This document shows, piece by piece, positions 1-46,407 of a stretch of DNA of 64,000 nt. The position numbers and the translations under genes were made by a program. This stretch comes from an uncultured Haloferula sp. (GTDB taxonomy: Bacteria; Verrucomicrobiota; Verrucomicrobiia; Verrucomicrobiales; Akkermansiaceae), in the NCBI GenBank assembly GCA_965652295.1, contig CBFGTS010000001.1, forward strand, positions 576,001-640,000, read 5' to 3'. The notes under the pieces were generated by a model. The model made no database searches and was not told the origin of the DNA. It was given only the letters and a program-made list of their open reading frames with translations. Numbering within the stretch: position 1 is the first letter of the stretch; each line of letters starts with the position of its first letter.

Positions 1-1
1 A

Positions 2-1660
2 ATCCGGGAGCGGCTGATGTTTTTCATCCGCATCTGCCACGCCGTGCAGCACGCTCACCAGAAGGGGGTGATCCATCGCGACATCAAACCCTCCAACATC
101 CTGGTCTGGGAACACGACGGTGAGGCGGTGCCCAAGGTGATCGACTTCGGGATCGCGAAGGCGACGAACGCGGGATTGGACGGGCGGGCGACTTTTACCT
201 CCGACGGACAGTTCGTGGGCACCCCTGCCTACATGAGTCCGGAGCAGGCCGCGGGCACGGCGCTGGATATCGACACGCGGACGGACATCTACAGTCTTGG
301 AGCGCTGTTGTATGAGTTGCTCTCGGGACAGCCGCCCTTTGACCCGGTGGAGCTGCGCCAGCTGGGAGCGGAAGAGATCCGCTCGATCCTGGGTGAAAGG
401 GAGCCGGCGGCACCTTCGGTGGCGCTCGGGTTGCTTTCGGAGGACGTGCGGGCCGAGGTGGCCGCCCGGCGGGGCTGTGAAATTCAGAAACTCTCGGGTC
501 AGATCCGCGACGATCTTGACCGGATCGTGATGAAGGCGATGGCGAAGGACCGCCAGCACCGCTACTCGGGAGCGGATGCGCTGGCTGCGGACGTGCTGTG
601 CTTTCTCAATGACGAGCCGGTTTCCGCGCGTCCTCCGGGAGGCTTCTATCGTTTCGGGAAACTCGTCCGTCGGAACAGGGCGGCGTTTGCGGCGGGAGTG
701 GTGGTTTTCGCCTCGCTGGTGCTGGGTCTCGGCGCGGCGACGGCGATGTACTTCCGCGCGAACCGGGCGCGGGAGGCGGCGGAGCTGGCGCGGGCGAACG
801 AGGCCGCGCTACGGCAACAGGCGGAGATCGGGCAGAACATCGCCCGGGCGGCGGTGCTGGTGCGTTACCAGAAATTTGCGGAAGCGGACGAGTTGCTGTC
901 GGGCATCGGGCCCGCCGACATCGAGCCCTCCTTGGAAAGCGCCGAGGTCTCCCGGGCGCTGGGCCTGTGGCATGCCCGCGAGGGTCGGTGGAAGGAGGCG
1001 GCGAACCGGTTCGCGGCGCTGGCCTTTTCGATGGCGAGCGCGGACAGCACGGACAGCGAGAACATTTCCATCGATATCCAACCCGCGGCCTCGACCCTGT
1101 GTGCGGCTGGCGACTTGGAAGGATACGAAAAGCTCCGTCGGATGGCGGTGGCGCGGTTCGGTGGAAGCTCGAATCCGATCGTCGCCGAGCAGGTGGTGAA
1201 ACCCTGCCTGTTGGTGCCGGCGGAAACAGAGGTTCTGGAGGGCCTCGCCCACCTGGAGGAGGTGATGTTGACGCATCATGAGACTCACGCTCCGGCCACT
1301 GATTTCGAGCGGAACCTGGCGTCCTGGCGCGAGTTCGCGATCGCCCTGATCGAGTACCGGAAAGGGAATTTCGAGAGAGGCTACGAATGGATCGAACAGT
1401 GTACGTGTGGAACTCACGAGAATCCGGCACGTGCTGCGATCGCGTGGGCGCTGCGGTCGATGCTCCGCCACCGTCTGGGGCACCCGGATGTCGCCCGGCA
1501 GGATCTTGCTGCGGCGCGGTTCATCGTGGCCGAGGCAATGACGGAGGACGGTGGCATTTTCGCTCACAACGAACCTGCCTGGCAGGATTGGCTGAATGCG
1601 CAGGGCATGATCCGCGAGGCGGAAGCGCTGTTGAACAGCAGCGATAGGGATCCTCCGTGA
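2..1660 (+). CDS. Membrane Ser/Thr protein kinase (Hanks type), 5'-truncated by the window edge; kinase-TM-periplasmic TPR-like sensor (STK1)
   Basis: HRDIKPSN, DFG and GTPAYMSPEQ motifs, then a hydrophobic TM (AAGVVVFASLVLGLGAATAMYF); frame is open to the window start; paralogous to 10123..12318. Confidence 0.93.
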   Translation: MRERLMFFIRICHAVQHAHQKGVIHRDIKPSNILVWEHDGEAVPKVIDFGIAKATNAGLDGRATFTSDGQFVGTPAYMSPEQAAGTALDIDTRTDIYSLGALLYELLSGQPPFDPVELRQLGAEEIRSILGEREPAAPSVALGLLSEDVRAEVAARRGCEIQKLSGQIRDDLDRIVMKAMAKDRQHRYSGADALAADVLCFLNDEPVSARPPGGFYRFGKLVRRNRAAFAAGVVVFASLVLGLGAATAMYFRANRAREAAELARANEAALRQQAEIGQNIARAAVLVRYQKFAEADELLSGIGPADIEPSLESAEVSRALGLWHAREGRWKEAANRFAALAFSMASADSTDSENISIDIQPAASTLCAAGDLEGYEKLRRMAVARFGGSSNPIVAEQVVKPCLLVPAETEVLEGLAHLEEVMLTHHETHAPATDFERNLASWREFAIALIEYRKGNFERGYEWIEQCTCGTHENPARAAIAWALRSMLRHRLGHPDVARQDLAAARFIVAEAMTEDGGIFAHNEPAWQDWLNAQGMIREAEALLNSSDRDPP

Positions 1661-1751: not shown

Positions 1752-3530
1752 GTGAAGTTTCTCCGTTCTTTCTCCCTTTCGCTTCTTTTCATTCCTTCCC
1801 TCTCCCTCGCGCACGACAGCGCCTTTCACTCATGGGCCGAGCGTCCGCCGCTCGGATGGAACAGCTGGGACATTTTCGGCACGACCGTGACCGAGCGCCA
1901 GATCCGCGAGCAGGCGGGGGCGATGGCGGAGCATCTGCTGCCGTCCGGGTATGATGTCCTGACGGTGGACATCCAATGGTATGAGCCGAAGGCCAAAGGT
2001 CACGCTTACACGCCGGGCGCGACCCTGGAGATGGACGAATACGGGCGCCTGATGCCTGCGACCAACCGGTTCCCCTCCGCCTCGAAGGGCAAGGGCTTCA
2101 AGCCGCTCGCCGACTTCGTGCATTCGAAGGGACTGCGTTTCGGCATCCACATCATGCGCGGGATTCCCCGGCAAGCGGTGGAGGAAAACACTCCGGTGCT
2201 GGGAACCGACCTGCGGGCTCAGGATGTGGCATTGACCCATTCGACCTGTCCGTGGAATCCGGACATGTATGGCGTGGATGCCACGAAGCCGGAGGGGCAG
2301 GCTTACTACGATTCGATCTTCGCGCTCTACGCCTCGTGGGGCGTGGACTTCGTGAAGGTGGACGACATTTCACGTCCGTATGACGACGTCCAGAAGGCCG
2401 AGATCGAGGCGATCCGGAAAGCGATCGACAAGACCGGCCGCAAGATCGTGCTGAGTCTTTCGCCCGGCGCCACGCCGGTGAGCGCCGGACCCCACGTGAT
2501 GGAGCACGCCAACATGTGGCGGATCACCGATGATTTCTGGGATCGCTGGGGGCTGCTGCATGCGATGTTCGAGCGGGTGGATGCCTGGACGCCTTACCGC
2601 GGTCCGGGGCATTGGCCGGATGCCGACATGCTGCCCATCGGAGTGGTGGACTTCGGCCGGCCCACCCGGTTCACCAAGGACGAGCAATACACGTTGATGA
2701 GTCTGTGGAGCATCGCCCGTTCGCCGCTGATCTTTGGAGGTGACATGACGAAGCTCGATGATTTCACCAAGGAAATGCTGACCCACCCCGAGATGCTCGC
2801 GGTGAACCAGCGGAGCACCAACAACCGCCAGGTCTCGCGGGAGGACAATCTGATCGTCTGGACCGCGGATGTTCCCGACAGCGAGGACAAGTATGTGGCG
2901 CTCTTCAACGCACAGAGCAGGGGGGATCACGTGGATTTCGCCAATGCCGATTATGCCAGCCCGGTGATTGCGGGCGCCGGGCAGTCGCAGCGGGTCGAGG
3001 TTTCGGTCAAAGGTGGTAAGCGTCTTGTTCTTTTCGTCCGTGATGGCGGTGACGGGTTTGCGTTCGATCACGCGGCATGGGTGGACCCGGTGCTGCGGGG
3101 GCCGCGGGGCGAGATGAAGCTCACGGATCTGAAATGGAGCATGGCCAAGGCGGGGTGGGGTGAAACCCGTGTGGACCGGACCTGCGATGACAAGCCGCTG
3201 GAGATCGGCGGAAAGCGCGTCAACGGCATCGGCACCCACGCGGAATCGGTGGTGATCTATGATCTGCCGGAAGGATACGAGACGTTCACGGCCACCGGGG
3301 TGATGATGAAGGAAGGCTCGGTGGTCTTCGGCGTGCTCGTGGATCGGAGTGCGGAGGAGATTTCCGACACCAGTGAGGTGGCGGTGGAGTTCAAGGACAT
3401 CGGCCTCTCCGGCAAGGCGATGGTCCGCGACCTCTGGGCGCGGAAAAACCTCGGCACCTTCGACGGCCGGTTTTCACAGAAGCTGCCTCTGCACGGAGCG
3501 GGTCTTTACCGCCTGCGGCCGGTGGAGTGA
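1752..3530 (+). CDS. Secreted GH27 glycosidase (beta-L-arabinopyranosidase-like/alpha-galactosidase) with inserted NPCBM-type module
   Basis: Signal peptide; GWNSWD, VDIQWYEP, FVKVDD, WRITDDFWD and PDADMLP motifs; DGGDG..DHAAW and GIGTHA NPCBM motifs. Confidence 0.9.
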   Translation: MKFLRSFSLSLLFIPSLSLAHDSAFHSWAERPPLGWNSWDIFGTTVTERQIREQAGAMAEHLLPSGYDVLTVDIQWYEPKAKGHAYTPGATLEMDEYGRLMPATNRFPSASKGKGFKPLADFVHSKGLRFGIHIMRGIPRQAVEENTPVLGTDLRAQDVALTHSTCPWNPDMYGVDATKPEGQAYYDSIFALYASWGVDFVKVDDISRPYDDVQKAEIEAIRKAIDKTGRKIVLSLSPGATPVSAGPHVMEHANMWRITDDFWDRWGLLHAMFERVDAWTPYRGPGHWPDADMLPIGVVDFGRPTRFTKDEQYTLMSLWSIARSPLIFGGDMTKLDDFTKEMLTHPEMLAVNQRSTNNRQVSREDNLIVWTADVPDSEDKYVALFNAQSRGDHVDFANADYASPVIAGAGQSQRVEVSVKGGKRLVLFVRDGGDGFAFDHAAWVDPVLRGPRGEMKLTDLKWSMAKAGWGETRVDRTCDDKPLEIGGKRVNGIGTHAESVVIYDLPEGYETFTATGVMMKEGSVVFGVLVDRSAEEISDTSEVAVEFKDIGLSGKAMVRDLWARKNLGTFDGRFSQKLPLHGAGLYRLRPVE

Positions 3531-3680: not shown

Positions 3681-6113
3681 GTGAAGTCTTTCTGCTGTCG
3701 ATCTGCCGCCTCTCTTCTTCTTTCCCTGTCCTGCCTCGCCGGAGCCGAGCCCGTTTTTCACGACTGGGCCGAGCGCCCGGTGATGGGCTGGAACAGCTGG
3801 GATTTCTACGGCACGACTCTCAATGAGGAACGGACGAAGGCCCAGGCCGACTACATGGCCGAAGAGCTTCTGGAGCACGGATGGAACCTCATCACGGTGG
3901 ACATCCAGTGGTATGAGCCGAACGCGAGCGGCTTCAACTACGACGCCGATGCCACGCTGGTGATGGACGAATGGGGCCGGCTCACGCCAGCCACCAACCG
4001 CTTTCCCTCGGCGTCCGGTGGAGCGGGATTCAAGCCGCTGGCCGACTATGTCCACGCCAAGGGCCTCCGGTTCGGCATCCACATGATGCGCGGCATCCCG
4101 CGTCAGGCGTGGGAGCAGGACCTGCCGGTGAAAGGCACCGCCTACACCGCCCGCGACATCGCCGATACCTCCAGCACCTGTTCCTGGAATCCGGACATGT
4201 ACGGGGTGAACATGAACCACCCGGGCGGGCAGGCCTACTATGATTCCCTGCTGGAGCTGGTCGCGTCGTGGGACGTGGACTTCGTCAAAATCGACGACCT
4301 GAGCCGCCCTTACCATCTCGCGGAGATCGAGGGCATCCGTGAGGCGATCGACAAGACCGGCCGGCCGATCGTGCTCAGCACGTCTCCCGGCGAGACCCCC
4401 GTGAGCGCCGGCCCGCACGTGATGCTCCATGCCAACCAATGGCGGATCAGCGACGACTTCTGGGACAACTGGCCGGCCCTCTACGACCAGTTCCAGCGCC
4501 TCCACGACTGGACGCCCTACCGCGGCCGCGGGCATTTCCCGGACGCCGACATGCTTCCGCTGGGCAAGATCCAGGGAGGCAGCGTGACCTCGGGTGGACG
4601 TAGTACCAACTTCACGGCCAGCGAGCAGTACACCCTGATGAGTTTGTGGGCCATCGCCCGCTCGCCGCTCATCCACGGCGGAGACATGACGCAGATGGAT
4701 TCGTTCACGCTCTCGCTGCTGACGAACGACGAGGTCATCGCGGTCAACCAGGCCAGCACGCACAACCGCCAGCTCTTCCGCAACGGCGACAAGGTGGCGT
4801 GGGTCGCCGACGTTGAGGGTTCGGCGGACAAATACCTCGGCGTCTTCAACACGGGCGGCTCCGGCACGACCGTCGCGGTGGACCTCTCCGCGCTCGGTTT
4901 CACCGGCGAGGTGGAGGTCCGGTCTCTGTGGGAAACGAGCGATCTCGGCAGCGTGACCGGCAGCTTCGAGCCCACGGTGGCGTCGCATGAGGGTCGCTTG
5001 TTCCGCCTTTCCGGGCCCGGACTGCCCACGCCGTGGCTGGCTTCCGCCACCGGGTCGGATGGGGAAGTCACTCTTGCCTGGGAGGAACTTGCGGAAGCGT
5101 CGGCATACCATCTCAAGCGCGGCCTCTCGGAAACCGGGCCCTTCGAGCTGATCGCCGCAGATCTCACGGAAACGACCTTCGCTGATACCTCGGTGACCAA
5201 CGGCACGACCTATTATTACGCCGTCTCCGCCACCGTCTCGGGTCAGGAGACACCGGACTCCGGAGCCCTGCCGGCTCTGCCCGTCGGTGAGGCGGGCATC
5301 ATCGGCTGGAACTACGACCGCTATGGTACCTTGGGCGGAGACCGGGTGGCCGGCGTGGTGCCGGCCGCGAACTGGAACAACTCGTGGCCGGACAATCCGC
5401 TCACCAACCTGAGCGATGCCTCCGGCACCGTGACCTCACTGGATATCAGCTACGCTTCCTTCAACGATTACTCGGTGAACGGCGGCGGAGGTCCGAACCC
5501 CGGTCAGGATGCGGACGGAAGCTACAACCGCGAGTTGCTCAATGGCTACCTCAACGCCGGGCCTGCGGCGTGGGGGCCGACGGTCACCCGCACCTCCGTG
5601 ACGCTCTCGGAAATCCCCCACGGTTATTACGACCTCATTGTCTATTTTTCCGCCGATGTGGCAGATCGCGAGGGTCAGGTGGGCGATGGCACCACCACCT
5701 ACTATTTCCGGACCATCGGTCCCCCGAGTGTTTCCGGGACCGACGCCGTTCTGGTGGAAACGACGCAGACCAGCCCCGACAGCTACCCGGCCGCGAACTA
5801 CGCCATCTTCACCAACCTCAGCGGAGTCTCACGGACGGTCTCCGTGCAGATGCGCGACAATGACGAGTGGGGCGGGATCGCCGGCATCCAGCTCGTGCCG
5901 AAGACCGATCCGCTGCTCAGCACCCGCCTTGAGATCGATGCTGTAGGCGGGGATCCCGCTTGGCTGTCGTGGCCCGAAGGGCTGGGCGACGTCCTGTTGG
6001 AGGAAAGCACCGATCTCGTCGAGTGGACCCCTTTCGACCCCCAGCCCGAGGCACCGCCGATGGAGATCCCCACTGATGGCGGTGCCCGGTTTTTCCGACT
6101 CACCCGCCCCTGA
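3681..6113 (+). CDS. Secreted GH27 glycosidase + FN3 + domain X + C-terminal putative sorting domain
   Basis: GH27 motifs as in the upstream paralog; FN3-like (VTLAW...YYYAVSA); domain X (WNYDRYG...MRDNDEWGGIAG); ends ESTDLVEW...ARFFRLTRP. Confidence 0.9.
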   Translation: MKSFCCRSAASLLLSLSCLAGAEPVFHDWAERPVMGWNSWDFYGTTLNEERTKAQADYMAEELLEHGWNLITVDIQWYEPNASGFNYDADATLVMDEWGRLTPATNRFPSASGGAGFKPLADYVHAKGLRFGIHMMRGIPRQAWEQDLPVKGTAYTARDIADTSSTCSWNPDMYGVNMNHPGGQAYYDSLLELVASWDVDFVKIDDLSRPYHLAEIEGIREAIDKTGRPIVLSTSPGETPVSAGPHVMLHANQWRISDDFWDNWPALYDQFQRLHDWTPYRGRGHFPDADMLPLGKIQGGSVTSGGRSTNFTASEQYTLMSLWAIARSPLIHGGDMTQMDSFTLSLLTNDEVIAVNQASTHNRQLFRNGDKVAWVADVEGSADKYLGVFNTGGSGTTVAVDLSALGFTGEVEVRSLWETSDLGSVTGSFEPTVASHEGRLFRLSGPGLPTPWLASATGSDGEVTLAWEELAEASAYHLKRGLSETGPFELIAADLTETTFADTSVTNGTTYYYAVSATVSGQETPDSGALPALPVGEAGIIGWNYDRYGTLGGDRVAGVVPAANWNNSWPDNPLTNLSDASGTVTSLDISYASFNDYSVNGGGGPNPGQDADGSYNRELLNGYLNAGPAAWGPTVTRTSVTLSEIPHGYYDLIVYFSADVADREGQVGDGTTTYYFRTIGPPSVSGTDAVLVETTQTSPDSYPAANYAIFTNLSGVSRTVSVQMRDNDEWGGIAGIQLVPKTDPLLSTRLEIDAVGGDPAWLSWPEGLGDVLLEESTDLVEWTPFDPQPEAPPMEIPTDGGARFFRLTRP

Positions 6114-6143: not shown

Positions 6144-6887
6144 ATGAAACCCCCGATGAAAACCCTGCTTCCCTGCCTTGTGCTGGGAGCCGTGACCACC
6201 GCGTCCGCCGCCACCGTTAGCTGGAACTACGACCGTTTCGGTACCGTGAGCGGCGCCCGCGTCGCCGGCGTCGAGCCGGTGGCGAACTGGAACAATACGT
6301 GGCCCGACGACCCGCTTACCGACCTGATCGATGACTCGGGATCCGCCACCACGATCGACATCAGCTACAGCTCCTTCAACACCTACTCGGTGAACGGAAA
6401 CACCGGGCCCAACCCCGGGCAGGACGCCGATGGCACCTACAACCGGGAGTTGGTCAACGGCTACCTCAATGCCGGCCCGGCGGGCTGGAATCCACCCACC
6501 ACCGAAAGCTCGGTGGGCATCAGCCAGATCCCGTATGCCAGCTACAACATCATCGTCTATTTCTCCGCCGACGTGGCGGGTCGCGAGGGCGATGTGACCG
6601 ATGGGAGCACGGTCTTCTCGTTCAACACCGTGGGCCCCGCCAGCGTGAGCGGCAGCAATGCGGTGCTCGCCCAGACGACCGACACCGGCGGCACCTACAC
6701 CACCGCGGCGAACTACGCCATTTTCACGGGCCTCAGCGGAGCCTCGCAGACGCTCACCGTGCAAATGCGCGATAACGACGAATGGGGTGGCATCGCCGGC
6801 TTTCAGGTCGTGCAGGTGCCCGAGCCGTCCTCCATCGCATTCGGAGTCTTCGGTGTCGCGCTCCTCCTGCGCCGTCGCCGCATCTGA
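6144..6887 (+). CDS. PEP-CTERM surface protein consisting of domain X (alternative start 6156)
   Basis: Signal peptide, domain X, C-terminal VPEPSSIAFGVFGVALLLRRRRI. Confidence 0.92.
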   Translation: MKPPMKTLLPCLVLGAVTTASAATVSWNYDRFGTVSGARVAGVEPVANWNNTWPDDPLTDLIDDSGSATTIDISYSSFNTYSVNGNTGPNPGQDADGTYNRELVNGYLNAGPAGWNPPTTESSVGISQIPYASYNIIVYFSADVAGREGDVTDGSTVFSFNTVGPASVSGSNAVLAQTTDTGGTYTTAANYAIFTGLSGASQTLTVQMRDNDEWGGIAGFQVVQVPEPSSIAFGVFGVALLLRRRRI

Positions 6888-6965: not shown

Positions 6966-9356
6966 ATGAAAACCCTGCCTTCTCTCTGCCTCGGTGCGCT
7001 TCTGTTGGCGGAGGCCCACGCCGATGTGATCAGCTGGAACTACGACCGTTATGGTACGGTGTCCGCGGAGCGTGTCGCCGGAATCGAGCCGGTGGCGAAC
7101 TGGAACAACTCGTGGCCCTCCGATCCGCGCACCGACCTGATCGATGACGAAGGAAATCCCACCACCCTCGATATCGCCTACACCTCGTTCAACAACTACT
7201 CGGTGAACGGGAACACCGGACCGAATCCCGGTCAGGATGCCGACGGCACCTACAACCGTGAGCTGCTCAACGGCTATCTTAACGCCGGACCTGCGGCCTG
7301 GAATCCGCCCACCACCAGCACGTCCGTCACCCTTTCCCAGATCCCCTATGCAAACTACGATGTCATCGTCTATTTCTCGGCCGATGTGGCGGGCCGCGAA
7401 GGCGATGTGACCGATGGTGTCACCACCTATTCATTCAACACCATCGGGCTCCCGAGTGTCAGCGGAACGAACGCGGTGTTGACGCCTACCACGGACACCG
7501 AGGGCACCTATACCACCGCGGCGAACTACGCCCGCTTCTCCGGTTTGAGCGGTGCCACCCAGACGATCACCGTGCAGATGCGCGACAACGACGAGTGGGG
7601 AGGCATCGCCGGCTTTCAGATCGTCGCGAACCTGGGCGTCCTGCCGGAATTCGGCTCCCAGCCGGAAGACACCTCGGCTGCGGTGGATGGCACGGCGGAG
7701 TTCTCCGCAGGGGTCGCGGCCGATCCGGCTCCGACGTTCCAGTGGGAGTTTTCCGCCGACGGGGTGAATGACTGGGAGGAACTTCCGGGGGAAACCTTCA
7801 CCACGCTCGAACTGTTCGCCGTGCAATTCTCCGATGAAGGTTTCTATCGCCTCATCGCCACCAATGACAACGGCTCCGTGGCGAGCGATCCGGCTCATCT
7901 GGATGTCTTCTACGCCACCCCGGAATTCTTCGAACAACCTGCCAACACCTACGCGGTGGAGGGCTCGACCGTGGAGCTGACGGCGGACGCCTTCACCTAT
8001 GGAAACCCCGGCTACCAATGGTACAAGGACGGCGAGATCCTGCCGGGCGAAACCAGCGCGACGCTCACGCTCGTCGGTGTGGGGGCGGACGACGAGGGCG
8101 AGTATTTCCTGCGGGTCACCGACGACGTTGAACCGGATTTGTTCGGTGACTCGGACACCGTCAATGTCTTCACCTATCAAGCGTGGGACGGGCTGGTCAG
8201 CCATGACCCCTTCGATACCTCAGCCGGATATGTCCTCGGCGAGCTGCCGCTTCAGGAGCCCGCCATCGCCGGCTACGACGGGCCGTGGACGGATGTGGAC
8301 TTCGGCGATGCCGAGCCGCAAGTGATGGAAAGCTCCTTGGTTTACCCCGATCCTCTCTATCTCGGCTCCAGCGGCGATCGCGTCGGAAAATCCGCCGATG
8401 TCGAAGGGATCGCCGTTTCCACCAGCGGGCGTGTTTATCGCAAGCTCGCCCCGGAGCTGGTGGTGGCGGAGAATACCTCGGGAGTTCGTTACCTGAGCTG
8501 GCTTTATCGCCATGGAAACGAGGGAACTGCGGATGCGCCGACCGTGCACTCCGTGCTCTCGCTCTATCAGGATACCGGCGGGGTTGCTCCTGCGGGCGAT
8601 GCCGCGCTGCGCACGTTCGAGGCCGGTATTTCCGACGCGGACTTTGGCACCACGAACTTCGCCTTCCGCTACAACGATTCGCAGGTCGGTGATCTCGGTG
8701 TGCCGGTGGATTCGGACGTCCACCTCTTCGTGGTAAAACTTGATCTCAGTGATGAATTCGCGGCCGACACGGTCACGGTGTGGCTCGATCCCCAGCTTGG
8801 TGGCGAAGGCGATCCGGCGGGGGGCGTCTCGCTGGAGTTCCTGGACGTTGCCTTTGATTCACTCGCGTTCTCCGACTATGCCAGCAACTCGATGGCATGG
8901 GATGAGGTGCGCTGGGGCAGCACCTTCGACAGCGTCACGCTCAACCCGAATCCACCGGACAACTTCGCCGCCTGGATCCAGTCCTATCCCGGAGTGGGTG
9001 AGATGGATGGTTTCGACGAAGACCCGGATGGCGACGGGCTGGAGAACGGCGTGGAGAACTACTTCGGAACCCACCCCGGTGAGCCGAACGCGGGTGTGAC
9101 CGAAGTCGCGAGAAGCGGTAACACCGTGACCTTCCAGCATCCTCTCAATGCCATTCCAGCGAGCGATGTGACCGCTGCCTACGAGTGGTCGCTCGATCTC
9201 GCGGCATGGCATGCCGATGGCGCTGCGGCCGGCGGCGCGACGGTGGATTTCGAGGTCGTTCAGGGGAGTGGGATCGCGACGGTGACGGCGACGATTTCCG
9301 GCACCGTCCCCTCGAAGCTGTTCACCCGGGTGGCGGTCGCTCAGGCCGGACCCTGA
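6966..9356 (+). CDS. Secreted non-catalytic protein: domain X + two Ig-like domains + beta-rich domain + DxDGDG repeat + C-terminal putative sorting domain
   Basis: N-terminus nearly identical to the 6144 protein; Ig motifs (PTFQW..., YQWYKDG...DEGEY); ends WSLDLAAW...KLFTRVAV. Confidence 0.85.
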   Translation: MKTLPSLCLGALLLAEAHADVISWNYDRYGTVSAERVAGIEPVANWNNSWPSDPRTDLIDDEGNPTTLDIAYTSFNNYSVNGNTGPNPGQDADGTYNRELLNGYLNAGPAAWNPPTTSTSVTLSQIPYANYDVIVYFSADVAGREGDVTDGVTTYSFNTIGLPSVSGTNAVLTPTTDTEGTYTTAANYARFSGLSGATQTITVQMRDNDEWGGIAGFQIVANLGVLPEFGSQPEDTSAAVDGTAEFSAGVAADPAPTFQWEFSADGVNDWEELPGETFTTLELFAVQFSDEGFYRLIATNDNGSVASDPAHLDVFYATPEFFEQPANTYAVEGSTVELTADAFTYGNPGYQWYKDGEILPGETSATLTLVGVGADDEGEYFLRVTDDVEPDLFGDSDTVNVFTYQAWDGLVSHDPFDTSAGYVLGELPLQEPAIAGYDGPWTDVDFGDAEPQVMESSLVYPDPLYLGSSGDRVGKSADVEGIAVSTSGRVYRKLAPELVVAENTSGVRYLSWLYRHGNEGTADAPTVHSVLSLYQDTGGVAPAGDAALRTFEAGISDADFGTTNFAFRYNDSQVGDLGVPVDSDVHLFVVKLDLSDEFAADTVTVWLDPQLGGEGDPAGGVSLEFLDVAFDSLAFSDYASNSMAWDEVRWGSTFDSVTLNPNPPDNFAAWIQSYPGVGEMDGFDEDPDGDGLENGVENYFGTHPGEPNAGVTEVARSGNTVTFQHPLNAIPASDVTAAYEWSLDLAAWHADGAAAGGATVDFEVVQGSGIATVTATISGTVPSKLFTRVAVAQAGP

Positions 9357-9548: not shown

Positions 9549-10145
9549 GTGAAAAACCCGATTTTGAGCAAACTCACGCGCATTCTGGAATCGGCCGGCG
9601 GACGCGCCCGGCCTCTTTCGGCGGAGCTGCTGCCGTTGGTTTATGACGAACTGCGGAACGTCGCCCGCGAGCGGATGTCGGCAATGGCCCCCGGCCAGAC
9701 CCTGCAACCGACCGCGCTGGTTCATGAGGCCTGGCTGAAGCTGTCCAGCGACGACGCGCGCTCGTGGAACGACCGCACTCATTTCTTTCGCGCTGCGGCC
9801 CAGGCGATGCGCCAGATCCTGGTGGACCGGGCGCGGGCGAAGGCCACCCACAAGCGCGTGGTGAACCCGGAGGTTTTCGAAATGCAGCAATTCGACCTCG
9901 CCGACGCGACGCTGGACGAGCGCGTGCTGCTGGTGGACGAGATGATGACCCGGCTGGAACTGGACGAGCCGGACAGCGTGCGACTGATCACGCTGAAATT
10001 TTTCGGCGGCCTGACCAACCGGGAGATCGCGGCGATGGACGGCGTGACCGAGCGCACGGTGGAGCGCCACTGGTCCTATGCCAAGGCGCTGCTCTATCAG
10101 ATGATCCGCGAGGAAACGGGACATGAAACAGCTGCCGTCGATTAA
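9549..10145 (+). CDS. ECF sigma factor, ECF43/TIGR02999-like (kinase-activated type); start may be TTG at 9564
   Basis: LLPLVYDELR, TLQPTALVHEAW, HFFRAAAQAMRQILVD, FFGGLT..EIA...TVERHW; overlaps the downstream kinase gene. Confidence 0.93.
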   Translation: MKNPILSKLTRILESAGGRARPLSAELLPLVYDELRNVARERMSAMAPGQTLQPTALVHEAWLKLSSDDARSWNDRTHFFRAAAQAMRQILVDRARAKATHKRVVNPEVFEMQQFDLADATLDERVLLVDEMMTRLELDEPDSVRLITLKFFGGLTNREIAAMDGVTERTVERHWSYAKALLYQMIREETGHETAAVD

Positions 10146-23854: not shown

Positions 23855-23863
23855 GACGATGCC

Positions 23864-25252: not shown

Positions 25253-25267
25253 AGCGCGTTTGTAGCC

Positions 25268-26711: not shown

Positions 26712-26724
26712 CCGTTTCTCCACC

Positions 26725-27555: not shown

Positions 27556-27575
27556 GAAGACCAGAATGCTTCAGA

Positions 27576-27600
27576 AGCTCCTTTCGGAGCTGTCTTCTTC
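27576..27600 (+). terminator. Possible weak terminator before hsdR
   Basis: AGCTCC-TTTC-GGAGCT hairpin followed by a pyrimidine-rich run. Confidence 0.3.
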
Positions 27601-27642
27601 TGCTAGGCATACTTGCGCCTCCGGGTTAGAGCTAGCCCGTTC

Positions 27643-31557: not shown

Positions 31558-31582
31558 ATGATTGACGGGGGGGTGGTGAATG

Positions 31583-34500: not shown

Positions 34501-36331
34501 GGTCGATTTCCTCGCGGGCATCGTGACCGACATCTCCGATCCAGAAGCCGGTGGCCGGATCGAAGCTCATGCGGTGGGGCTGGCGCAATCCGATGGCGTA
34601 GAATTCCTCCAAGACCGTGCCGTCGGGATTCACCCAGGGGTTGTCATTCGGGATGTGATATCCCTGGGTGAACGATCCATGCGAAGACGAGGCGTTGTAG
34701 GGCTGGCGGATGATGGGATGGCTGACGGCTCCGCCCTGCTGGTCCACGTCGATGCGCCAGACGCCCGAGCGGACGCGCGAGTAGAGGAGTTGGGTGAAGT
34801 CGTTGGCGCCGGTGCCCTGGATGCCTTCATCGCCGAAGGAGATGTAGAGAAACCCGTCATCGCCGAACGCGAGGCCGCCGCCGTCGTGGCCTTTCTCGGT
34901 GTCGTATTGGTTGATCAGGATGAGTTCCGAACCGGGGTCGAAGGTCGAGGTCACCGGGTTCCAGGAAAATCGAGACAGGCGGTCGTAGTAAGGCGTGCTT
35001 GCGTTCGCGGCGTCGTTCTCGTTGTGGAGGTAGAAGACGTAGATGAAGTCCTTGTCCTCGCCCTGTCCGAAGCGCGGATGGAGGGCGAAGGTCTGCATGC
35101 CGCCGTGCTTGGTGCCGTTGTCGTTGGATGACCAGTTGTAGTACCAGGCCCGCTCGCGGATATCGAGAAGCAGGGTGCGGGTGGTCGTGGTGTCATCGTC
35201 GGGAACGCGATAAAGACGGCCGTCGGTTTCCGCGATCAGGAGGTCGGTCGAGCCGGGAAAGGGCGACACCTGGATCGGCGAATCCCAGGAAAGATCCGGG
35301 AAAGCCCGCTCGACGGCGACGGTGCTCACCGGAGTCGGTTTTTCGGGAAGCATGCCGCCGTGGAAGGGATCGGCGGCGGGAGCCGAGTCGAGGCCGCTGA
35401 CACCTTCCTCATAGGGTCGCAGCGAGGTCGCGGCGGGCGTGGGAAAGTCGGCGGGTAAGGCAGCGCCGGGATCTCGCTTGGCGAGCCACTTCATCGCGCG
35501 GATGAAGACGGTCTGGAAGGCGGCGCAGCGCGCGCCCGGCGGTTCGGCGACATCGCCCCAGACGTGACAGTAGCTGCTGGCGTAAGTACGGCCCGCGCCG
35601 TATTCGACGGTCCAGTCGATGGGAAAGCGGGTGCCGTCGCGGTCGGCCGCGTACGACAGCACGGTCAGGTTTTCCGCCGGACCGCGGGCGTAGCGATAGA
35701 CCTCGATGTCGGCCACCATCCAGGTGGCGGGTAGTCCGGCGTGGATGGGGTGATCGCCGCGCTTGGAGACGAGCACGTCCTGACGCGCGCCATGGTTGGT
35801 ACTTTCCCCGGCACCGGCGGCGATCACGTTGATGCTGCCGTCGGCATTCACGGTGATCGCCTTGCCGAAGGTCCTGTCGCGCCAGCCGAGGCCGATGATC
35901 TGGTTGTATTGCGGCCACTCGGCGAAGGAGTTGTTCGCCTCGTGGAAGGCGTAGAAGCCGCCGCCGCCATGGACGTAGGCGGCGAAGGAGTCCTTCACTT
36001 CCTGCGGCCATGAGGGCAGGCCACCGAGGTTGTTGTAGCCCGAAATGACCACGTCGTAGTCGTTGAACTCCGGACGCCAGGCGTTCCATGCCGGGTCACC
36101 GGCCGCGGTGGGCGTGACGGTGAAGTCCACGTCGAAGGAACCGTCCTTGGCGAGAATGGCGCGGACGATGTTCAGGCGCTTTTCCCACGCGTGGTTCGTC
36201 ACGCCCTCGACGATGAGAACTTTGATCTTCGCCTCGTTCTCCGCCTCGTTGTCGGCGAGGGAAACGAAGGCAAATGCGAGGAGCAGGAGGGGGAGAAGCA
36301 GCGAGATTCGTTTCAGGGCGGAATGGCTCAA
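31583..36331 (-). CDS. Secreted multidomain redox protein: ThuA-like domain + PQQ-type sugar dehydrogenase propeller + diheme cytochrome c + two tandem ~181-aa repeats + C-terminal putative sorting domain
   Basis: KVLIVEG..NHAW ThuA-like N-terminus; HDGGGLAFGDDGFLYISFGD and IGLRQPHR; CNACH and CSHCH; ends SESLTEW...QLFVRLSSIPN; TTG start. Confidence 0.88.
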   Translation of the reverse strand: MSHSALKRISLLLPLLLLAFAFVSLADNEAENEAKIKVLIVEGVTNHAWEKRLNIVRAILAKDGSFDVDFTVTPTAAGDPAWNAWRPEFNDYDVVISGYNNLGGLPSWPQEVKDSFAAYVHGGGGFYAFHEANNSFAEWPQYNQIIGLGWRDRTFGKAITVNADGSINVIAAGAGESTNHGARQDVLVSKRGDHPIHAGLPATWMVADIEVYRYARGPAENLTVLSYAADRDGTRFPIDWTVEYGAGRTYASSYCHVWGDVAEPPGARCAAFQTVFIRAMKWLAKRDPGAALPADFPTPAATSLRPYEEGVSGLDSAPAADPFHGGMLPEKPTPVSTVAVERAFPDLSWDSPIQVSPFPGSTDLLIAETDGRLYRVPDDDTTTTRTLLLDIRERAWYYNWSSNDNGTKHGGMQTFALHPRFGQGEDKDFIYVFYLHNENDAANASTPYYDRLSRFSWNPVTSTFDPGSELILINQYDTEKGHDGGGLAFGDDGFLYISFGDEGIQGTGANDFTQLLYSRVRSGVWRIDVDQQGGAVSHPIIRQPYNASSSHGSFTQGYHIPNDNPWVNPDGTVLEEFYAIGLRQPHRMSFDPATGFWIGDVGHDAREEIDLLDAPGLNFQWNYMEGTAPGFRAAPSPLIGTERGPIFDYSHSGADSLGNCVIGGYVYRGDAISFLQGKYIFGDNGSQGIYALDFDPVTKTANSVTRIGQARSGNIWTGISSFGHNADGELFVTQMGAGQPGNGRIFRLRPDTGAIEDSVFPPTLSATGLFSDLSTLTPIPQLIPYEVNMPLWSDGAVKSRWMMIAGDGTPDTEAERITYNDSERWNLPIGSVLVKHFALPGSGAKLETRVLIRGSDGVWGGVTYRWLPDQSDAVLLEEGATESLNIGGEFVDYLFPSRAQCNACHNTNTGGVLGLSTRQLNRNILYPTTGRVAHQVETLSKLGFIATPRSEVSLRNALTSADREDPAVSDADFVRSYLDSNCSHCHTPGGTRALFDARLTTPLAVQGLLCGPVNDDLGIEGARAIKPGLPGQSVVLERLNTIAAHRMPPIGRGRVDDESVVRLANWILGMEVDSCTGPQGSLAALESHAIGNGNQPTGTVAADTWQSNMVINRSDTFTNTTGAPLDITLDRFLFHASNVTGTPITPFVVRVNAGTDNFTVRAIGDTITSHALGTNDLPFSASPVALTLAAGETIAMGFLDAYPDGSGAAGTGVISYDTAAPTDSIHYSGASGTDGSFSVTVGSAPDFGSSVVTNLGRNYYFSITFLAPWRIGNEQPPGSSPAADTWSSNMVINETDTFTNTSGALLNLTVDRFQFHAAAVTGTPLTPFVVRVNGDNNFTVLAVGKTVTSHAPGFNDVAFNDFPAPLTLAPGETVAMGFLDAYPDGSGGGGAGAITFDTAAPADQIHYSGSSGTSGSGSVTVGLAPDFASSVFTNFGRNYYFSLVITPTVSESDMDDDGLPDTWELAYAADVSLLSATLDSDGDGFTDDEERQLGTHPLDSTSRLRVVEWQPDSANGVVLGNFDSIPGRNYRIHISESLTEWTDYGLIRAADWPATETPFELQYDSSGEVPVQLFVRLSSIPN
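31991..33064 (-). repeat. Tandem intragenic duplication (2 x 543 nt) encoding an unassigned beta-rich domain
   Basis: IGN...ADTW.SNMVIN..DTFTN...MGFLDAYPDGSG...GRNYYFS occurs twice, starting at 33064 and 32521. Confidence 0.9.
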
Positions 36332-40143: not shown

Positions 40144-40911
40144 TTAGCGGCGACGGCGCAGCCCGAGAAGCAGCAGTCCCCCCGCGGCCAAGGCGGATGT
40201 GGTCGGCTCCGGCACCGAGTAGAGGGTGAAGCCGGCGAGGTGAGTGTCGGCATTGCCAACAATGTCGGTTGCCTGGACGAAAATGTCCTGGAAACCGGCG
40301 TCGGCCGTGAAGGTGAACATGGACATCGTGGCCGAGGTCTGGGAGAACGATCCGGATGTGCCGCCACTAAAGGTGCCGGCGCTGAAGGTGTCCCAGTAGG
40401 CTTGATCGCGATCGGCTTGGCGGGCATCGGCGGAGAACAGCGAGATCACATAGTCCTGGCCGATGGTAAGCCCCGCGACGCGCAAGCCCAGGGGCTGGAC
40501 GGCATCGCTGCCGTCGTTGTGCCATGCGTTGGTGCGCAGGACCGTGTCGAACTGCGTGTCACCGGTGGTGCCGGGGAACAGGGCGTTGTTCGGACCCTGG
40601 CCGACGCCATTGTAGATGGTGGTCGATGACGAGGGGGCTGCCGGCATGTTTTCGTCGTTGTCCGTCGCGCCGAGGGCGAAGGTGATCGCTTGGCCGCCCG
40701 GGGTGTTCACCGTCTGGGCGCTGCCACCGAACGTCGCGGCTTGTTCGAACGTGGCTCCTGGGAAGAGAACCAGCGGCTGGTCCAGAACGGCGTCCGAGGT
40801 GATGGTTGTGTTCGAGATGTGGCTAATGGTGGCTGCGTTGATGCCGACGGTGCAGGCGGCAAGAGCACAGATCGTGTTCCTAACAGTTGATGTATTCATT
40901 GGTGTTTTCAT
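40144..40911 (-). CDS. PEP-CTERM surface protein carrying a divergent domain-Z homolog (alternative start 40899)
   Basis: Signal peptide; C-terminal VPEPTTSALAAGGLLLLGLRRRR; GQDYVISLFSADAR and FTADAGFQDIFVQ resemble domain Z. Confidence 0.9.
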   Translation of the reverse strand: MKTPMNTSTVRNTICALAACTVGINAATISHISNTTITSDAVLDQPLVLFPGATFEQAATFGGSAQTVNTPGGQAITFALGATDNDENMPAAPSSSTTIYNGVGQGPNNALFPGTTGDTQFDTVLRTNAWHNDGSDAVQPLGLRVAGLTIGQDYVISLFSADARQADRDQAYWDTFSAGTFSGGTSGSFSQTSATMSMFTFTADAGFQDIFVQATDIVGNADTHLAGFTLYSVPEPTTSALAAGGLLLLGLRRRR

Positions 40912-43591: not shown

Positions 43592-45838
43592 CTACCGCGG
43601 AGAGGAGAGATCTTCCGTCACTTCGGCTGCCGGGATGAGATCGGATGCCTCCTCGGTCAGGATGCGTGCGAAAAGCCAGTCATACCACCGACCGGCATTG
43701 CCCGCGTCTTCGGTGAGGGATGTGGAGAACTTGGCATCGACGGCGGTGCGGGCGGACTTCAGGTGAAGCGACGCGGTGGGAATGTCGTCCAGCCGGAGGT
43801 AGCACATCGCCAGGATGGCATCGTAGGTGGGACGGTGGGCCATGCTAGCGGTCGAGCCGCTCTTGGCGGTTTTGGCGATTTGGATCGCGCCGTGATTGTC
43901 GCCGGTCCGGTAGAGCCAGAGGCAGGGGGCGATGCCGGGCCATCCGGTGCTTTGGCCGGTCGGAATCGTCGTGAACCAGTGCCGTGACGAAACCGCGAGG
44001 GGTTCGAGGCTCTCTTCGAGCTGCGGCGTCAATGGACGCAGGAGGCAGGATTTCAGAAGCCGGCTGGCTTCATCGCCACCATGGTGCTCTTGATCCGAGC
44101 TACTCACCGCAAGGCAGAAGCGGTTGTACCTCTCGAAAGCCCCCATCTCGACCAACAGTACCCCGTAGGCCTGGCAGTTGAGCGTGACGGTCTGCCACGG
44201 GTCGAGAGTGTCGATCTCGAACAGCCACTCGAAACACTTTCCGGCCTCCTCCCAGCGTTGCTGGGCACCGAGCCATTGACCCACGTCGCGCAAAGCGGTG
44301 ACGGCGTCGAGACTTGGTTTGCGCGGCGGGGCGTCGATGCGGCCGAGCACGAGGGCCGCCGCTTCGAAGTCGTCTTGGCGGGTCAGGGCGACTGCTTCGG
44401 TGAGCTGTTCGCGGACTTCGGCGTCGCGGCGAAGCTTCGCTTCCTTGGTGAGCGCCCACTCGGCGGTCTGGCGCAGCTCGGCTTGGCGCAGCTCGGCCCT
44501 TTTCGCCTTGATGTAGAGCACGGTGGAGGTCCCGAAGCCGGCGGTCAGGACGATCAGGATCAGCGCCCCGGAGGCGAAGACGACGCGATTGCGCCGGATG
44601 AGCTTGCGGAGGACGTAGAGATGGCCGGGAGGGCGTGCGGCGATCGGCTCGTCTTGGAGAAACCGCTGAAGGTCGAGCGCTAGGCCGTTGGCCGTGTCGT
44701 AGCGGCGGGTCCGGTCTTTCTCCATCGCCCGCATGATGATCCAATCCAGCTCTCCTCCGATCTTCGTGGCGGTTTGCGCCGGGTCGGGGGAAGCGGAAAC
44801 TCCGCCATTGGGCAGCGAGGCTTTCCTTTTTTCAGCCAGGAGAACGGACGGTCGTTTGGGTTCGCGCCCAAGGAGCATCTGACGGATTTCAACGGCACCC
44901 CTGTTGGCACGGAATTCGGCGTCAAACGGCGGACTGCCGGTGACGAGTTCGTAGAGCAGGGCTCCGAGGCTGTAAATGTCGCTCCGCGTATCGATGTCCG
45001 CGTCACCGATGGCGGCTTGCTCCGGGCTCATGTAGGAGGGGGTGCCGAGAAGCTGTTCGTGCTGGGTGTGAAGGGTTTCGTCGGTGAGCCTGCCTTCAAT
45101 GGCTTTGGCGATCCCGAAGTCGATCACTTTGGGGACGGGGACGCCGTCCTGCTCGGCGATGAGCACGTTGGAGGGTTTGATGTCGCGGTGGATGATCCCT
45201 TTCTGGTGCGCGTGTTGGATGGCGCGGCATACTTGGATGACCAGCTCCACGCGTTGCCGCAGCGTGCAGCCATGTTGGTGGCAGTAGTCGGTGATCCGCA
45301 TGCCGCGGACGAGTTCCAGCACGAAATACGGCCGGCCGCGGGTGGTGGCTCCGGCGTCAAGGACACGGGCGATGTTGGGGTGGTCCATCATGGCCAGCGC
45401 CTGGCGCTCGGCGTCGAAACGACGGATCACGCTGCGGGTGTCCATGCCGAGCTTGATGACCTTGAGCGCGACGTGGCGCTTCACGGGCTCCGTTTGCTCA
45501 GCCAGGTAAACCTCGCCGCACCCTCCCTTGCCGAGGCTTTCCAAAAGGGTGTAGGGACCGATGCGGGTGCCGATCCGTTCATCCACGACTTCGAGGTCCT
45601 GGACGTCTCCCTCTCCCTGAAGTTCGCGAAGGGCTTCGCCGCTCTGGGCGATGGCGTCATAGCCACGGTCCACGAAATGGTCTCCAGTTTGCCCGGCGAG
45701 GAGCAGTTCCTCGATTGTATTGCGTAGCGCGGGATCATCCTGACAGGCGCGGTCGAGGAACTCCTCGCGTTCCCGCACATCGGAAATGTGAAGAGCGGCG
45801 AAGAAGAGCGCATCCTCAAGTTGTTTGCCGCGGCTCAT
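43592..45838 (-). CDS. Membrane Ser/Thr protein kinase (STK3) with periplasmic sensor
   Basis: GKGGCGEV, HRDIKPSN, DFG, YMSPEQ, TM helix; ATGA overlap with the sigma gene. Confidence 0.95.
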   Translation of the reverse strand: MSRGKQLEDALFFAALHISDVREREEFLDRACQDDPALRNTIEELLLAGQTGDHFVDRGYDAIAQSGEALRELQGEGDVQDLEVVDERIGTRIGPYTLLESLGKGGCGEVYLAEQTEPVKRHVALKVIKLGMDTRSVIRRFDAERQALAMMDHPNIARVLDAGATTRGRPYFVLELVRGMRITDYCHQHGCTLRQRVELVIQVCRAIQHAHQKGIIHRDIKPSNVLIAEQDGVPVPKVIDFGIAKAIEGRLTDETLHTQHEQLLGTPSYMSPEQAAIGDADIDTRSDIYSLGALLYELVTGSPPFDAEFRANRGAVEIRQMLLGREPKRPSVLLAEKRKASLPNGGVSASPDPAQTATKIGGELDWIIMRAMEKDRTRRYDTANGLALDLQRFLQDEPIAARPPGHLYVLRKLIRRNRVVFASGALILIVLTAGFGTSTVLYIKAKRAELRQAELRQTAEWALTKEAKLRRDAEVREQLTEAVALTRQDDFEAAALVLGRIDAPPRKPSLDAVTALRDVGQWLGAQQRWEEAGKCFEWLFEIDTLDPWQTVTLNCQAYGVLLVEMGAFERYNRFCLAVSSSDQEHHGGDEASRLLKSCLLRPLTPQLEESLEPLAVSSRHWFTTIPTGQSTGWPGIAPCLWLYRTGDNHGAIQIAKTAKSGSTASMAHRPTYDAILAMCYLRLDDIPTASLHLKSARTAVDAKFSTSLTEDAGNAGRWYDWLFARILTEEASDLIPAAEVTEDLSSPR

Positions 45839-46407
45839 GTCATGTCCTCATCCGGGGTCTGCTGGATCCAGCGAGCAAGCCGGGCTTGGGCGCACACCCA
45901 GTGGCGGTACACCGTTCGGACGCCGATATCCAAATAGGTGGCGACCTCCTCGTTGGTCATTCCTCCGAAGAATTTCAGCAGAACGACGCGGGCTTGCTCG
46001 GGATCGTCCTGTTCAAGCTTCGTCAGCGCCTCGTGGATCAGGAGAATATTTTCGGATGGACTGGTGTCCGCGATTTCGATCGCGCCGACATCGATCCGCT
46101 CCTGATCACCACCCCTTTTCAAGCGCGACTTGCGACGGGCCACATCGACAAGGATGCGTCGCATTGCCTGGGCTGCCGCGCCGAAAAAATGGGCGCGGTT
46201 TTCCCACGTGCGATCTCCTTCCCCGACGAGTTGGATCCAAGCTTCATGCACCAAAGCCGTGGCTTGGAGGGTTTGTCCCGGCGATTCCCTGGCCATCCGC
46301 GCCGCGGCCAGAGCACGCAGTTCCTGATAAACGAGCGCGAGCAGCTCGGAGGACGACGCCGGGTCATCCCGGCTCGCCTGCTGCAGCGCGAGGGTGATGT
46401 CGTTCAT
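45835..46407 (-). CDS. ECF sigma factor, ECF43/TIGR02999-like
   Basis: LVYQELR, TLQATALVHEAW, HFFGAAAQAMRRILVD, TVYRHW. Confidence 0.94.
   Translation of the reverse strand: MNDITLALQQASRDDPASSSELLALVYQELRALAAARMARESPGQTLQATALVHEAWIQLVGEGDRTWENRAHFFGAAAQAMRRILVDVARRKSRLKRGGDQERIDVGAIEIADTSPSENILLIHEALTKLEQDDPEQARVVLLKFFGGMTNEEVATYLDIGVRTVYRHWVCAQARLARWIQQTPDEDMT

Follow-up and report, generated by a model that had tools for sequence, protein, structure and literature searches.

The stretch of DNA analysed here (the window) comprises 64,000 nucleotides (nt) of an uncultured Haloferula sp. of the phylum Verrucomicrobiota (GenBank assembly GCA_965652295.1, contig CBFGTS010000001.1, positions 576,001 to 640,000). 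It contains three co-directional gene runs, recognised from the listing of open reading frames (ORFs) and from Pfam and NCBIfam matches and named modules 1 and 2 (plus strand) and module 3 (minus strand). A typical module consists of genes for an extracytoplasmic function (ECF) sigma factor, a membrane Ser/Thr kinase, a PEP-CTERM protein, a carrier with one or two copies of a domain private to the module and, in most cases, an enzyme active on carbohydrates that bears another copy. Intergenic gaps within the runs are mostly below 150 nt and reach about 250 nt at most. Gene starts are ORF-based, and genes were named from Pfam and NCBIfam scans of the window ORFs; G000 designates the genome under study (4.37 Mb assembly) and other G codes related genomes.

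A first-pass annotation, made from the letters alone, had proposed that the same architecture occurs three times with three different shared domains, here called X, Y and Z, and all-against-all BLASTP comparisons bear this out. X is present in the glycoside hydrolase (GH) GH27b (amino acids (aa) 530-744, nt 5268-5912), in PEP1 (aa 14-228) and in the immunoglobulin (Ig) carrier (aa 4-220), with 64-77% identity and E values of 1e-85 to 1e-110; PEP1 and the Ig carrier are 77% identical, and GH27b shares 64-66% with each of them. Y is 42-75% identical across PEP2, the Asp2 carrier and a dehydrogenase-cytochrome: residues 57-274 of PEP2 match 35-252 of Asp2 at 75% and aa 27-229 of the dehydrogenase at 47%, and a second, weak copy lies at 606-764 of Asp2 (29% to PEP2). 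The Z copies of the Asp3 carrier (121-391 and 499-871) match residues 881-1248 of a fucosidase-like GH29 at 59%, and the PEP3 copy is just 28-32% identical to those of Asp3 and GH29 (E 1e-5 to 1e-10). The single domain claimed for module 3 is indeed shared, except that PEP3 holds an old divergent subtype (Za, the enzyme-type copies being Zb). Read by eye, PEP-CTERM proteins, carriers and the Y-bearing dehydrogenase all start with a signal-peptide-like N-terminus, with the shared domain directly behind it.

The domains are tied to their loci. In tblastn searches of the whole assembly, X and Z, together with a further private repeat, W, are confined to their own modules and Y gives a few weak matches elsewhere, so the genome-wide scattering that had been named as fatal to the proposal was not found for X and Z. 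W occurs as two tandem copies, 69% identical, at aa ~1091-1460 of the last but one protein of module 3, and no PEP-CTERM partner was seen for it. Neither X, Y, Z and W nor the C-terminal domain described below match any Pfam or NCBIfam family.

The layout recurs across the genome. By tblastn, G000 has 11 ECF-sigma/Ser-Thr-kinase pairs, the window pairs combining ECF sigma regions 2 and 4 with a co-directional Ser/Thr kinase gene. The kinases have an outer sensor part of ~350 aa in common, over which the 11 paralogues can be aligned at 26-52% identity. PEP-CTERM ORFs, counted with a regular expression, number about 62-71, and one lies within 5 kb of the kinase at 10 of the 11 pairs, compared with 17.7% of 20,000 random positions, a contrast that is descriptive because paralogous loci are not independent. 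At the eleventh locus the tail of a nearby protein reads VPEA, not VPEP. At 4 of the 11 loci the PEP-CTERM gene is the first one after the kinase gene, at a distance of 1-315 nt, and at seven of the 11 the passenger domain of the PEP protein is common to a neighbour. This is usually a carrier of 800-900 aa whose first copy is close to the PEP protein and whose second is divergent, and which ends in a TSP3-type motif and a domain of ~100 aa. Thus the recurrence of the triad announced by the first-pass annotation extends to a PEP-CTERM gene near all 11 pairs, counting the variant tail, and to domain sharing at 7/11.

The key sister locus is C5:174k, where Pfam recognises an ECF gene, a kinase gene, a PEP protein with Laminin_G_3, a carrier with two Laminin_G_3 domains and TSP3, and a GH31 with Laminin_G_3, in this order; the triad reappears here with LamG, a recognised lectin-type domain, as its shared part. 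At C4:15.7k and C1:421k a LamG PEP protein is paired with a carrier having two LamG copies (Pfam), and at other sister loci a PEP protein and carrier stand beside GH31-PA14, GH2, GH115 or a PA14/3-keto-disaccharide hydrolase protein. Five further pairs of PEP protein and neighbour occur away from kinases, with a weak sixth at C16 (23% identity), and one of the kinase-free pairs adjoins a FecR-like gene. The enzymes of the modules belong to GH27, GH29, GH31, GH97, BNR_4 and the sugar dehydrogenases. The architecture is not due to chance.

Conservation in relatives was followed module by module. The X triad, searched in 24 same-genus genomes, is found in the same order in G007, G016, G023 and G010, and twice in G021, where it comes after an ECF-kinase pair and GH27a. 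Of module 3, G007 retains ECF3, STK3, the carrier, PEP3 and the ThuA protein, this last being 84% identical and in the same position. Among the 40 relatives searched module 2 has no orthologue, and Y-like domains cluster there in multi-copy loci. In G111, of another class, the PEP protein and a neighbour have a common domain at three loci, one of which reads ECF, kinase, GH97, carrier, PEP, GH29; its GH29 is 51% identical to the window GH29 over 1077 aa, its PEP protein shares 48% identity with PEP3, and of the two Z copies in its carrier one is PEP-type and the other enzyme-type. It follows from this comparison that Za and Zb are two old subtypes, and that module 3 either existed before the classes diverged or moved as a whole by transfer. 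Judged by the names of its database matches, the organism belongs in or near Luteolibacter. Besides, the X matches include Luteolibacter arcticus proteins of three kinds (PEP protein, Ig carrier and GH27), which suggests that a cultured species carries the X triad and therefore makes experiments feasible.

The tree of 17 X copies places 4/5 enzyme copies together. For the PEP and Ig copies the grouping follows position in G007, G016 and G023, but genome in G000 (support 87/90) and G010 (100/99). Recent gene conversion between the copies was considered and rejected, as no long identical DNA tract was found (DNA identity 79%, longest identical run 25 nt); the pattern points to occasional old conversion or re-duplication and not to a recent event. 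Among 120 X-bearing long proteins listed, 68 have a GH27 catalytic domain and ~36 are Ig carriers (hand count), and a few carry ricin, CBM6, LamG or GH28; from this association with GH27, X has the behaviour of a binding module linked to a single enzyme family. In GH27b, X is appended after the catalytic and Fn3-like parts, and the paralogue GH27a has a recognised binding module, NPCBM.

The folds were approached through AlphaFold models. That of PEP1 (X) is a beta-sandwich (pLDDT 87.4, 46-row alignment), for which Foldseek gave malectin-like receptor domains, Cry domain III and many carbohydrate-binding modules (CBMs) at low TM scores. The highest VIA-align rows were the YxiM N-domain (Z-score 10.1, root-mean-square deviation (rmsd) 3.1, 133 aligned), the beta-glucuronidase C-terminal module 6d50 (10.0) and the FERONIA malectin-like domain (9.6), with CBM61, CBM36 and CBM35 lower down among many CBMs at 6-8; compared with 6d50, 6a5e, 8dhl and 6ed1 the model reaches Z-scores of 8.2-10.0, and with malectin (2k46) 6.3. 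The PEP3 model (Za; pLDDT 89.5) aligns best with 6d50 (Z-score 14.9, rmsd 3.4, 148 aligned), followed by FERONIA (6a5e, 13.8), 8dhl (13.3), 6ed1 (12.7), YxiM (11.3) and malectin (2k46, 9.5), over a background of about 8. Since both models match the same chains, X and Za share the malectin-like fold class; as no Pfam match is found at E up to 10, they are classed as malectin fold relatives only. The Bacteroides beta-glucuronidase C-terminal modules presumably bear the CBM57 label. A proposed sequence homology between X and Z was discarded, the hhalign probability of 98% resting on the PEP-CTERM tail and dropping to 1.3% after trimming. Modelled as the first-pass annotation had suggested, X and the PEP3 domain came out as CBM/malectin-like sandwiches; its view of three different domains is right for the sequences of X and Z, which are unrelated, and not for their fold class, which is the same. 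Y belongs to a family of 572 representative clusters, in which PEP-CTERM is present in 37 of the 45 members sampled. No useful match for Y came from a profile search of solved structures, and the weak hints are to GH131_N (0.003-0.011), a Sialidase-like CBM (0.008) and, in the ESM Atlas, DUF6645 (feature score 0.95).

The PEP-CTERM tails of the window score slightly above the PF07589 cut-off of 20.7 bits (PEP1 21.0, PEP2 21.7 and PEP3 21.0), and PEP3 also matches TIGR02595 (18.8 bits, cut-off 16). By eye, the hydrophobic N-termini of the PEP proteins end in Ala-x-Ala-like sites, and G000 has one exosortase. Seven window proteins (GH27b, the Ig carrier, Asp2, the dehydrogenase-cytochrome, the ThuA protein, GH29 and Asp3) have another C-terminal domain in their last ~100-130 aa. 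A hidden Markov model built from seven seeds recovered few proteins, and a motif count was used instead: genome-wide, 68 ORFs of at least 300 aa have a TSP3-like Asp motif 60-200 aa before the end, and most finish in an FFRL, FYRV or FLRL-like sequence. Proteins of this type are about as numerous as PEP-CTERM proteins, and the ending may represent a second domain, still unnamed, for anchoring or sorting at the C-terminus; its ESM Atlas look-alikes are unnamed and come mostly from Verrucomicrobiota clusters. As regards regulation, TTGACGGCGG followed by GCTAG(G/C)CTG stands just before 3-4 of the 11 ECF genes (G000:C1:574910, C3:215666, C4:15757 and C1:585549), and this partial motif could be a regulatory site.

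Table 1. Genes and other features of the window and of G000 outside it (window positions unless a contig is named).
Feature	Position	Strand	Domains, matches and remarks
PEP-CTERM ORF, 260 aa	G000:C1:573896-574678	-	Just upstream of the window; divergent from the module 1 ECF gene
Module 1 ECF sigma gene	G000:C1:574724-575458		Upstream of the window (tblastn)
STK0, module 1 membrane Ser/Thr kinase	2-1660	+	5' truncated by the window start; Pkinase 1.6e-27
GH27a, alpha-galactosidase-like	1752-3530	+	Melibiase_2, NPCBM, Melibiase_C; without X
GH27b	3681-6113	+	Melibiase_2 4.4e-23; GH27 catalytic part, Fn3-like stretch, X, short C-terminal domain
PEP1	6144-6887	+	Signal-peptide-like N-terminus, X, PEP-CTERM tail
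Ig carrier	6966-9356	+	X, two Ig domains (Ig_3, I-set), unnamed ~260-aa region, one TSP3-like motif, C-terminal domain
ECF2, module 2 ECF sigma	9549-10145	+	Sigma70_ECF (PF07638) 5.2e-41; TIGR02999 176.9 bits (cut-off 126)
STK2	10123-12318	+	Pkinase 1.8e-44; one predicted membrane helix; ~350-aa outer sensor part
PEP2	12463-13230	+	Signal-peptide-like N-terminus, Y, PEP-CTERM tail
Asp2 carrier	13310-15796	+	Y copy 1, long Asp-rich TSP3-like linker, divergent Y copy 2, C-terminal domain
Y-bearing dehydrogenase-cytochrome, 1381 aa	15817-19962	+	Y, Big_9, GSDH beta-propeller, SO2930-type dihaem cytochrome c, cadherin, C-terminal domain
ORF of 364 aa after the dehydrogenase gene	within 19959-21203	+	Looks spurious
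ABC transporter ATPase	20205-21203	-	ABC_tran 4e-30
Lower-GC island (57-59%)	21057-29973	+	Type I restriction hsdM, hsdS, hsdR
ApeA-HEPN	23864-25252		Between the restriction genes
Weak PD-(D/E)XK ORF	25268-25741		Between the restriction genes
DUF488	25689-26711		Between the restriction genes
Unnamed ORF	26593-27555		Between the restriction genes
Tryptophan-halogenase-family flavoprotein	30076-31560	-	2e-95; last gene of module 3
ThuA-GSDH-cytochrome c protein	31583-36331	-	Pfam; two W copies, TSP3, C-terminal domain; downstream member of module 3
W repeat	32000-33061	-	Two tandem copies
GH29 fucosidase-like enzyme	36350-~40018	-	Alpha_L_fucos 3e-57; Fucosidase_C, Fn3-like stretch, DUF1349, Zb, TSP3 motifs, C-terminal domain
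PEP3	40144-40911	-	Signal-peptide-like N-terminus, divergent Z subtype Za, PEP-CTERM tail
Asp3 carrier	40952-~43339	-	Two Zb copies, TSP3-like linkers between, C-terminal domain
STK3, module 3 membrane Ser/Thr kinase	43592-45838	-	Pkinase 6.6e-45; 42% identity to STK2 over 733 aa
ECF3, module 3 ECF sigma	45835-46455	-	Sigma70_ECF (PF07638) 4e-52
Fucose-centred catabolic run	46595-64000	-	Directly upstream of ECF3
Exosortase	G000:C15:28125-28871		PF09721, 167 bits, above cut-off

The genes first listed for module 1 stand, with GH27a, which had been left out, and the ECF gene just upstream of the window to be added. GH27a and GH27b are 64% identical across the catalytic part, and STK0 is 46% identical to STK2 over 544 aa, sensor part included (BLASTP); the STK2 sensor part gives a weak TPR signal only (TPR_12 at 0.0075). 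GH27b terminates in FFRLTRP and Asp2 in FFRVEEP. Asp2 has partial CglD/MtsD matches of TSP3 type, and the dehydrogenase-cytochrome matches TIGR03806 at 1.2e-60. The start of Asp3 was set at a Met 76 codons inside the ORF, and its TSP3_bac match is weak (0.0015, under the cut-off). Module 3 does not finish where it had first been drawn, since it runs on into the ThuA-GSDH-cytochrome protein and the halogenase-like gene.

Modules 2 and 3 are separated by the ABC transporter ATPase gene and the lower-GC island with its restriction genes. The run upstream of ECF3 contains L-fucose isomerase, an alginate-lyase-family protein with Fn3, an unnamed 572-aa protein, two GH95, GH2, a second GH29, GH31 and FucU. 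At the other end, the passenger part of the PEP-CTERM ORF just before the window has no match elsewhere in the genome.

Taken together, these loci are best read as substrate-specific glycan-binding and harvesting modules, probably under ECF-kinase control, with X, Y and Z as predicted carbohydrate-binding domains presented in three formats; we give this reading a probability of roughly 0.55. From gene order, domain sharing, recurrence, conservation, PEP-CTERM tails, the exosortase in the genome and the predicted folds we infer sensing, phosphorylation, co-transcription, surface display and sugar binding. The kinase would sense a breakdown product and activate its sigma factor, perhaps by phosphorylation (proven sigma phosphorylation is reportedly known in Vibrio), and the co-directional downstream genes would then be switched on. 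The exosortase would process the PEP-CTERM protein and put it on the cell surface, and the carrier and the enzyme would be retained there via the Asp-rich calcium-type repeats and the common C-terminal domain. All three formats would bind one polysaccharide through the shared domain, so that the substrate would be captured, concentrated and cut at the cell surface. As X travels with GH27, its ligand would be an alpha-galactoside-bearing glycan, and as Z travels with GH29, its ligand would be a fucosylated one. Between the two options of the first-pass annotation, a common ligand-binding module and a docking module, the former is favoured by the recurrence of the triad, the PEP-CTERM tails and exosortase, the enzyme partners, the sandwich models of X and Z and the LamG sister module, sugar binding itself being a prediction.

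Several observations weigh against this reading. No carbohydrate-binding family of Pfam is matched by X, Y or Z, even with E values of up to 10. The fold scores of X (Z-scores of about 10) are modestly above the usual background of 7-8, and fold likeness by itself shows no function. The apparent likeness of Y to LamG is lost on trimming, the hhalign probability to LamG PEP proteins being 96% with the tail and 3% without it, and Y has no Pfam match to Laminin_G_3. That the sigma factors probably control their neighbouring genes is read from gene order only, and no firm common promoter motif emerged when the sequences upstream of the 11 ECF genes were compared. Besides, no transporter is evident in the window modules. 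The 7 kb upstream of the X triad hold no ECF-kinase pair in G016 and G023.

The link between kinase and PEP-CTERM gene is also patchy outside G000. A profile of the sensor part detects the kinase family in 14 of 201 genomes of the phylum (at least 90% complete), and at the 18 ECF-kinase loci compared from 11 other genomes a PEP-CTERM ORF lies within ~19 kb at only seven: 2/2 in G023, 1/1 in G028, 4/5 in G111, 0/2 in G175 and 0/8 in the eight genomes of family f12, which belongs to the same class (loci L085-L088, L091, L092, L093 and L095). At just 1/18 loci does it stand within 1.5 kb directly behind the kinase. L092 (G147:C8:261994-280980), the sole f12 locus scanned with Pfam, has two TonB-dependent receptors directly after the kinase, and the kinase family seems re-wired to other output genes in f12. 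The expected recurrence of triads beside ECF-kinase pairs across Verrucomicrobiota is seen in G111 and the relatives, and a PEP-CTERM ORF is missing at most of the 18 loci.

Three other explanations were weighed. According to one of them, the docking option, the shared domain would pair with itself, and the enzyme and carrier copies would bind the exosortase-anchored PEP-CTERM copy to form a cellulosome-like coat on a Gram-negative surface. The occurrence of one domain in anchored, multi-copy and catalytic format within one locus speaks for such a role, as does the 64-80% identity of the copies, with those of PEP and Ig proteins grouping by genome in G000 and G010 as if kept matched; the G111 carrier, moreover, has the layout that an adaptor needs. 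However, this layout is not kept in module 3 of G000, because the carrier has two enzyme-type copies and none of the PEP type, and the PEP3 copy is as divergent as described above. The Y copy of the module 2 enzyme is nearer to the PEP type than to the second carrier copy, the folds match sugar-binding modules with no cohesin or dockerin family match, and no tract of recent conversion was found, so that we regard docking as distinctly unlikely. The same holds for a wider proposal built on it, which we consider rather improbable: an undescribed type of polysaccharide utilisation locus (PUL) of Verrucomicrobiota's own, with a kinase-driven ECF switch, an exosortase-anchored lectin, a calcium-repeat carrier and enzymes that would assemble outside the cell via private-domain pairing, the carrier of the other class acting as adaptor.

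Signalling offers another possibility, unlikely in our view, in which the PEP-CTERM protein and the carrier would capture glycan outside and pass the glycan or a signal to the kinase sensor part, much as outer-membrane partners act for anti-sigma factors in Bacteroidota and in FecA/FecR systems. It would account for the PEP gene being the most constant neighbour of the pair (10-11/11), directly behind the kinase at four loci, for the distinct sensor sequence of every kinase paralogue, and for those sister loci where a FecR-like gene, not a kinase, accompanies a LamG PEP protein and carrier. It fits poorly with a sensor part anchored in the inner membrane, which PEP-CTERM proteins are thought to leave, with the related f12 kinases that have no nearby PEP-CTERM gene, and with enzymes that carry the domain too, which pure signalling does not need. 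Adhesion, finally, is considered very unlikely: here the PEP-CTERM proteins and carriers would be lectins for the cell's own exopolysaccharide or for neighbour cells in flocs or biofilm, and the enzymes would remodel the matrix. PEP-CTERM systems correlate with exopolysaccharide production in what is accessible of PMC1569441, and a PEP-CTERM gene is required for floc formation in another bacterium according to the consulted part of PMC9850573. The DNA sources are soil, rhizosphere and sludge metagenomes, and the carriers partially match the Myxococcus adhesion proteins CglD and MtsD through TSP3 repeats; these matches, however, are far under the cut-off and confined to the repeats. Many private domains are combined with different catabolic families (GH27, GH29, GH31 and GH97), beside fucose catabolism genes, and with such varied pairing of domain and enzyme the preferred reading, nutrient harvesting, fits better than the binding of one self-made polymer.

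PEP-CTERM proteins abound in bacteria of soil and water, yet a role is known for few of them; for kinase-linked ECF sigma factors the target genes are, to our knowledge, largely unknown; and Verrucomicrobiota break down complex glycans in the absence of the Sus-type loci by which Bacteroidota organise this process. The conserved module would join these three questions, its unit being a regulator pair with a single binding domain and a single enzyme family. The substrates of uncultured Verrucomicrobiota could then be predicted from the enzyme carrying the private domain, and X, Y, Za, Zb and perhaps W would be several new candidate carbohydrate-binding families. If private-domain assembly were true, the modules would amount to a Gram-negative equivalent of the cellulosome and would give a first role to PEP-CTERM passengers and to these ECF-kinase pairs. 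Searches of the full-text literature, with most subscription journals outside their reach, found no publication that brings ECF-kinase pairs, PEP-CTERM proteins and shared domains together, which agrees with the statement of the first-pass annotation that no description was known.

Compared with known systems, the loci look like an undescribed variant of glycan-utilisation loci. The PULs of Bacteroidota (with SusC/D, SusE/F-type binding proteins and often ECF sigma/anti-sigma pairs) are alike in that there are many paralogous loci, each with its own envelope-spanning regulator, surface binding proteins and GHs with related binding modules, and ECF groups tied to carbohydrate scavenging have been described in Bacteroidota (10.1101/2019.12.11.873521, accessible text). 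The anchor of the modules, in contrast, is predicted to be of PEP-CTERM/exosortase type and not a lipoprotein, the regulator is an ECF sigma factor with a Ser/Thr kinase in place of an anti-sigma factor or hybrid two-component system, and no TonB_dep_Rec, Plug, SusC or SusD family was matched by the 34 window ORFs scanned with Pfam. That the modules replace SusC/D is thus an analogy. The cellulosome is similar in its non-catalytic multi-module carrier, its enzymes with one recurring non-catalytic module and its Asp-rich calcium-type repeats near the C-terminus. The window proteins differ from it in having no cohesin or dockerin match in Pfam, only TSP3-type Asp repeats, as well as a shared module with a predicted sugar-binding-like fold and a Gram-negative host.

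At the level of the single parts, the X and PEP3 models align best with the modules grouped as malectin/CBM57-like (the Bacteroides beta-glucuronidase C-terminal module, FERONIA/ANXUR, malectin and YxiM), and X is likewise appended to a GH; they depart from this group in matching no Malectin, Malectin_like or CBM family of Pfam at E up to 10 and in being, at ~200 aa, larger than most CBMs. The regulator pairs resemble the kinase-linked ECF groups (ECF43, ECF59-62, ECF217, ECF267 and ECF283), for which direct phosphorylation has been hypothesised (10.1101/2019.12.11.873521, accessible text): an ECF sigma gene precedes a Ser/Thr kinase gene, and no anti-sigma gene was seen in between. The window sigmas, on the other hand, match PF07638 and TIGR02999, and PEP-CTERM or lectin targets are not mentioned in the accessible text of that source. 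With the PEP-CTERM/exosortase (EpsH) system the modules share the PEP motif, hydrophobic helix and basic cluster at the C-terminus, the many copies and the one exosortase gene. Other species provide points of reference, each from the accessible part of its source: Verrucomicrobium spinosum has 65 PEP-CTERM proteins (PMC1569441), 9 of 23 PEP-CTERM proteins were observed in Akkermansia, some dependent on the carbon source (PMC4960237), and ZepA, a PEP-CTERM exoprotein of Anabaena, captures zinc (PMC10957091). PEP-CTERM operons were found to be mostly single-gene, with regulation by PrsK/PrsR and sigma-54 in Proteobacteria (Haft et al. 2006, PMC1569441, accessible sections), whereas in the genome studied here a subset of these proteins is encoded in multi-gene modules behind ECF-kinase pairs, with a passenger domain common to the neighbouring enzymes.

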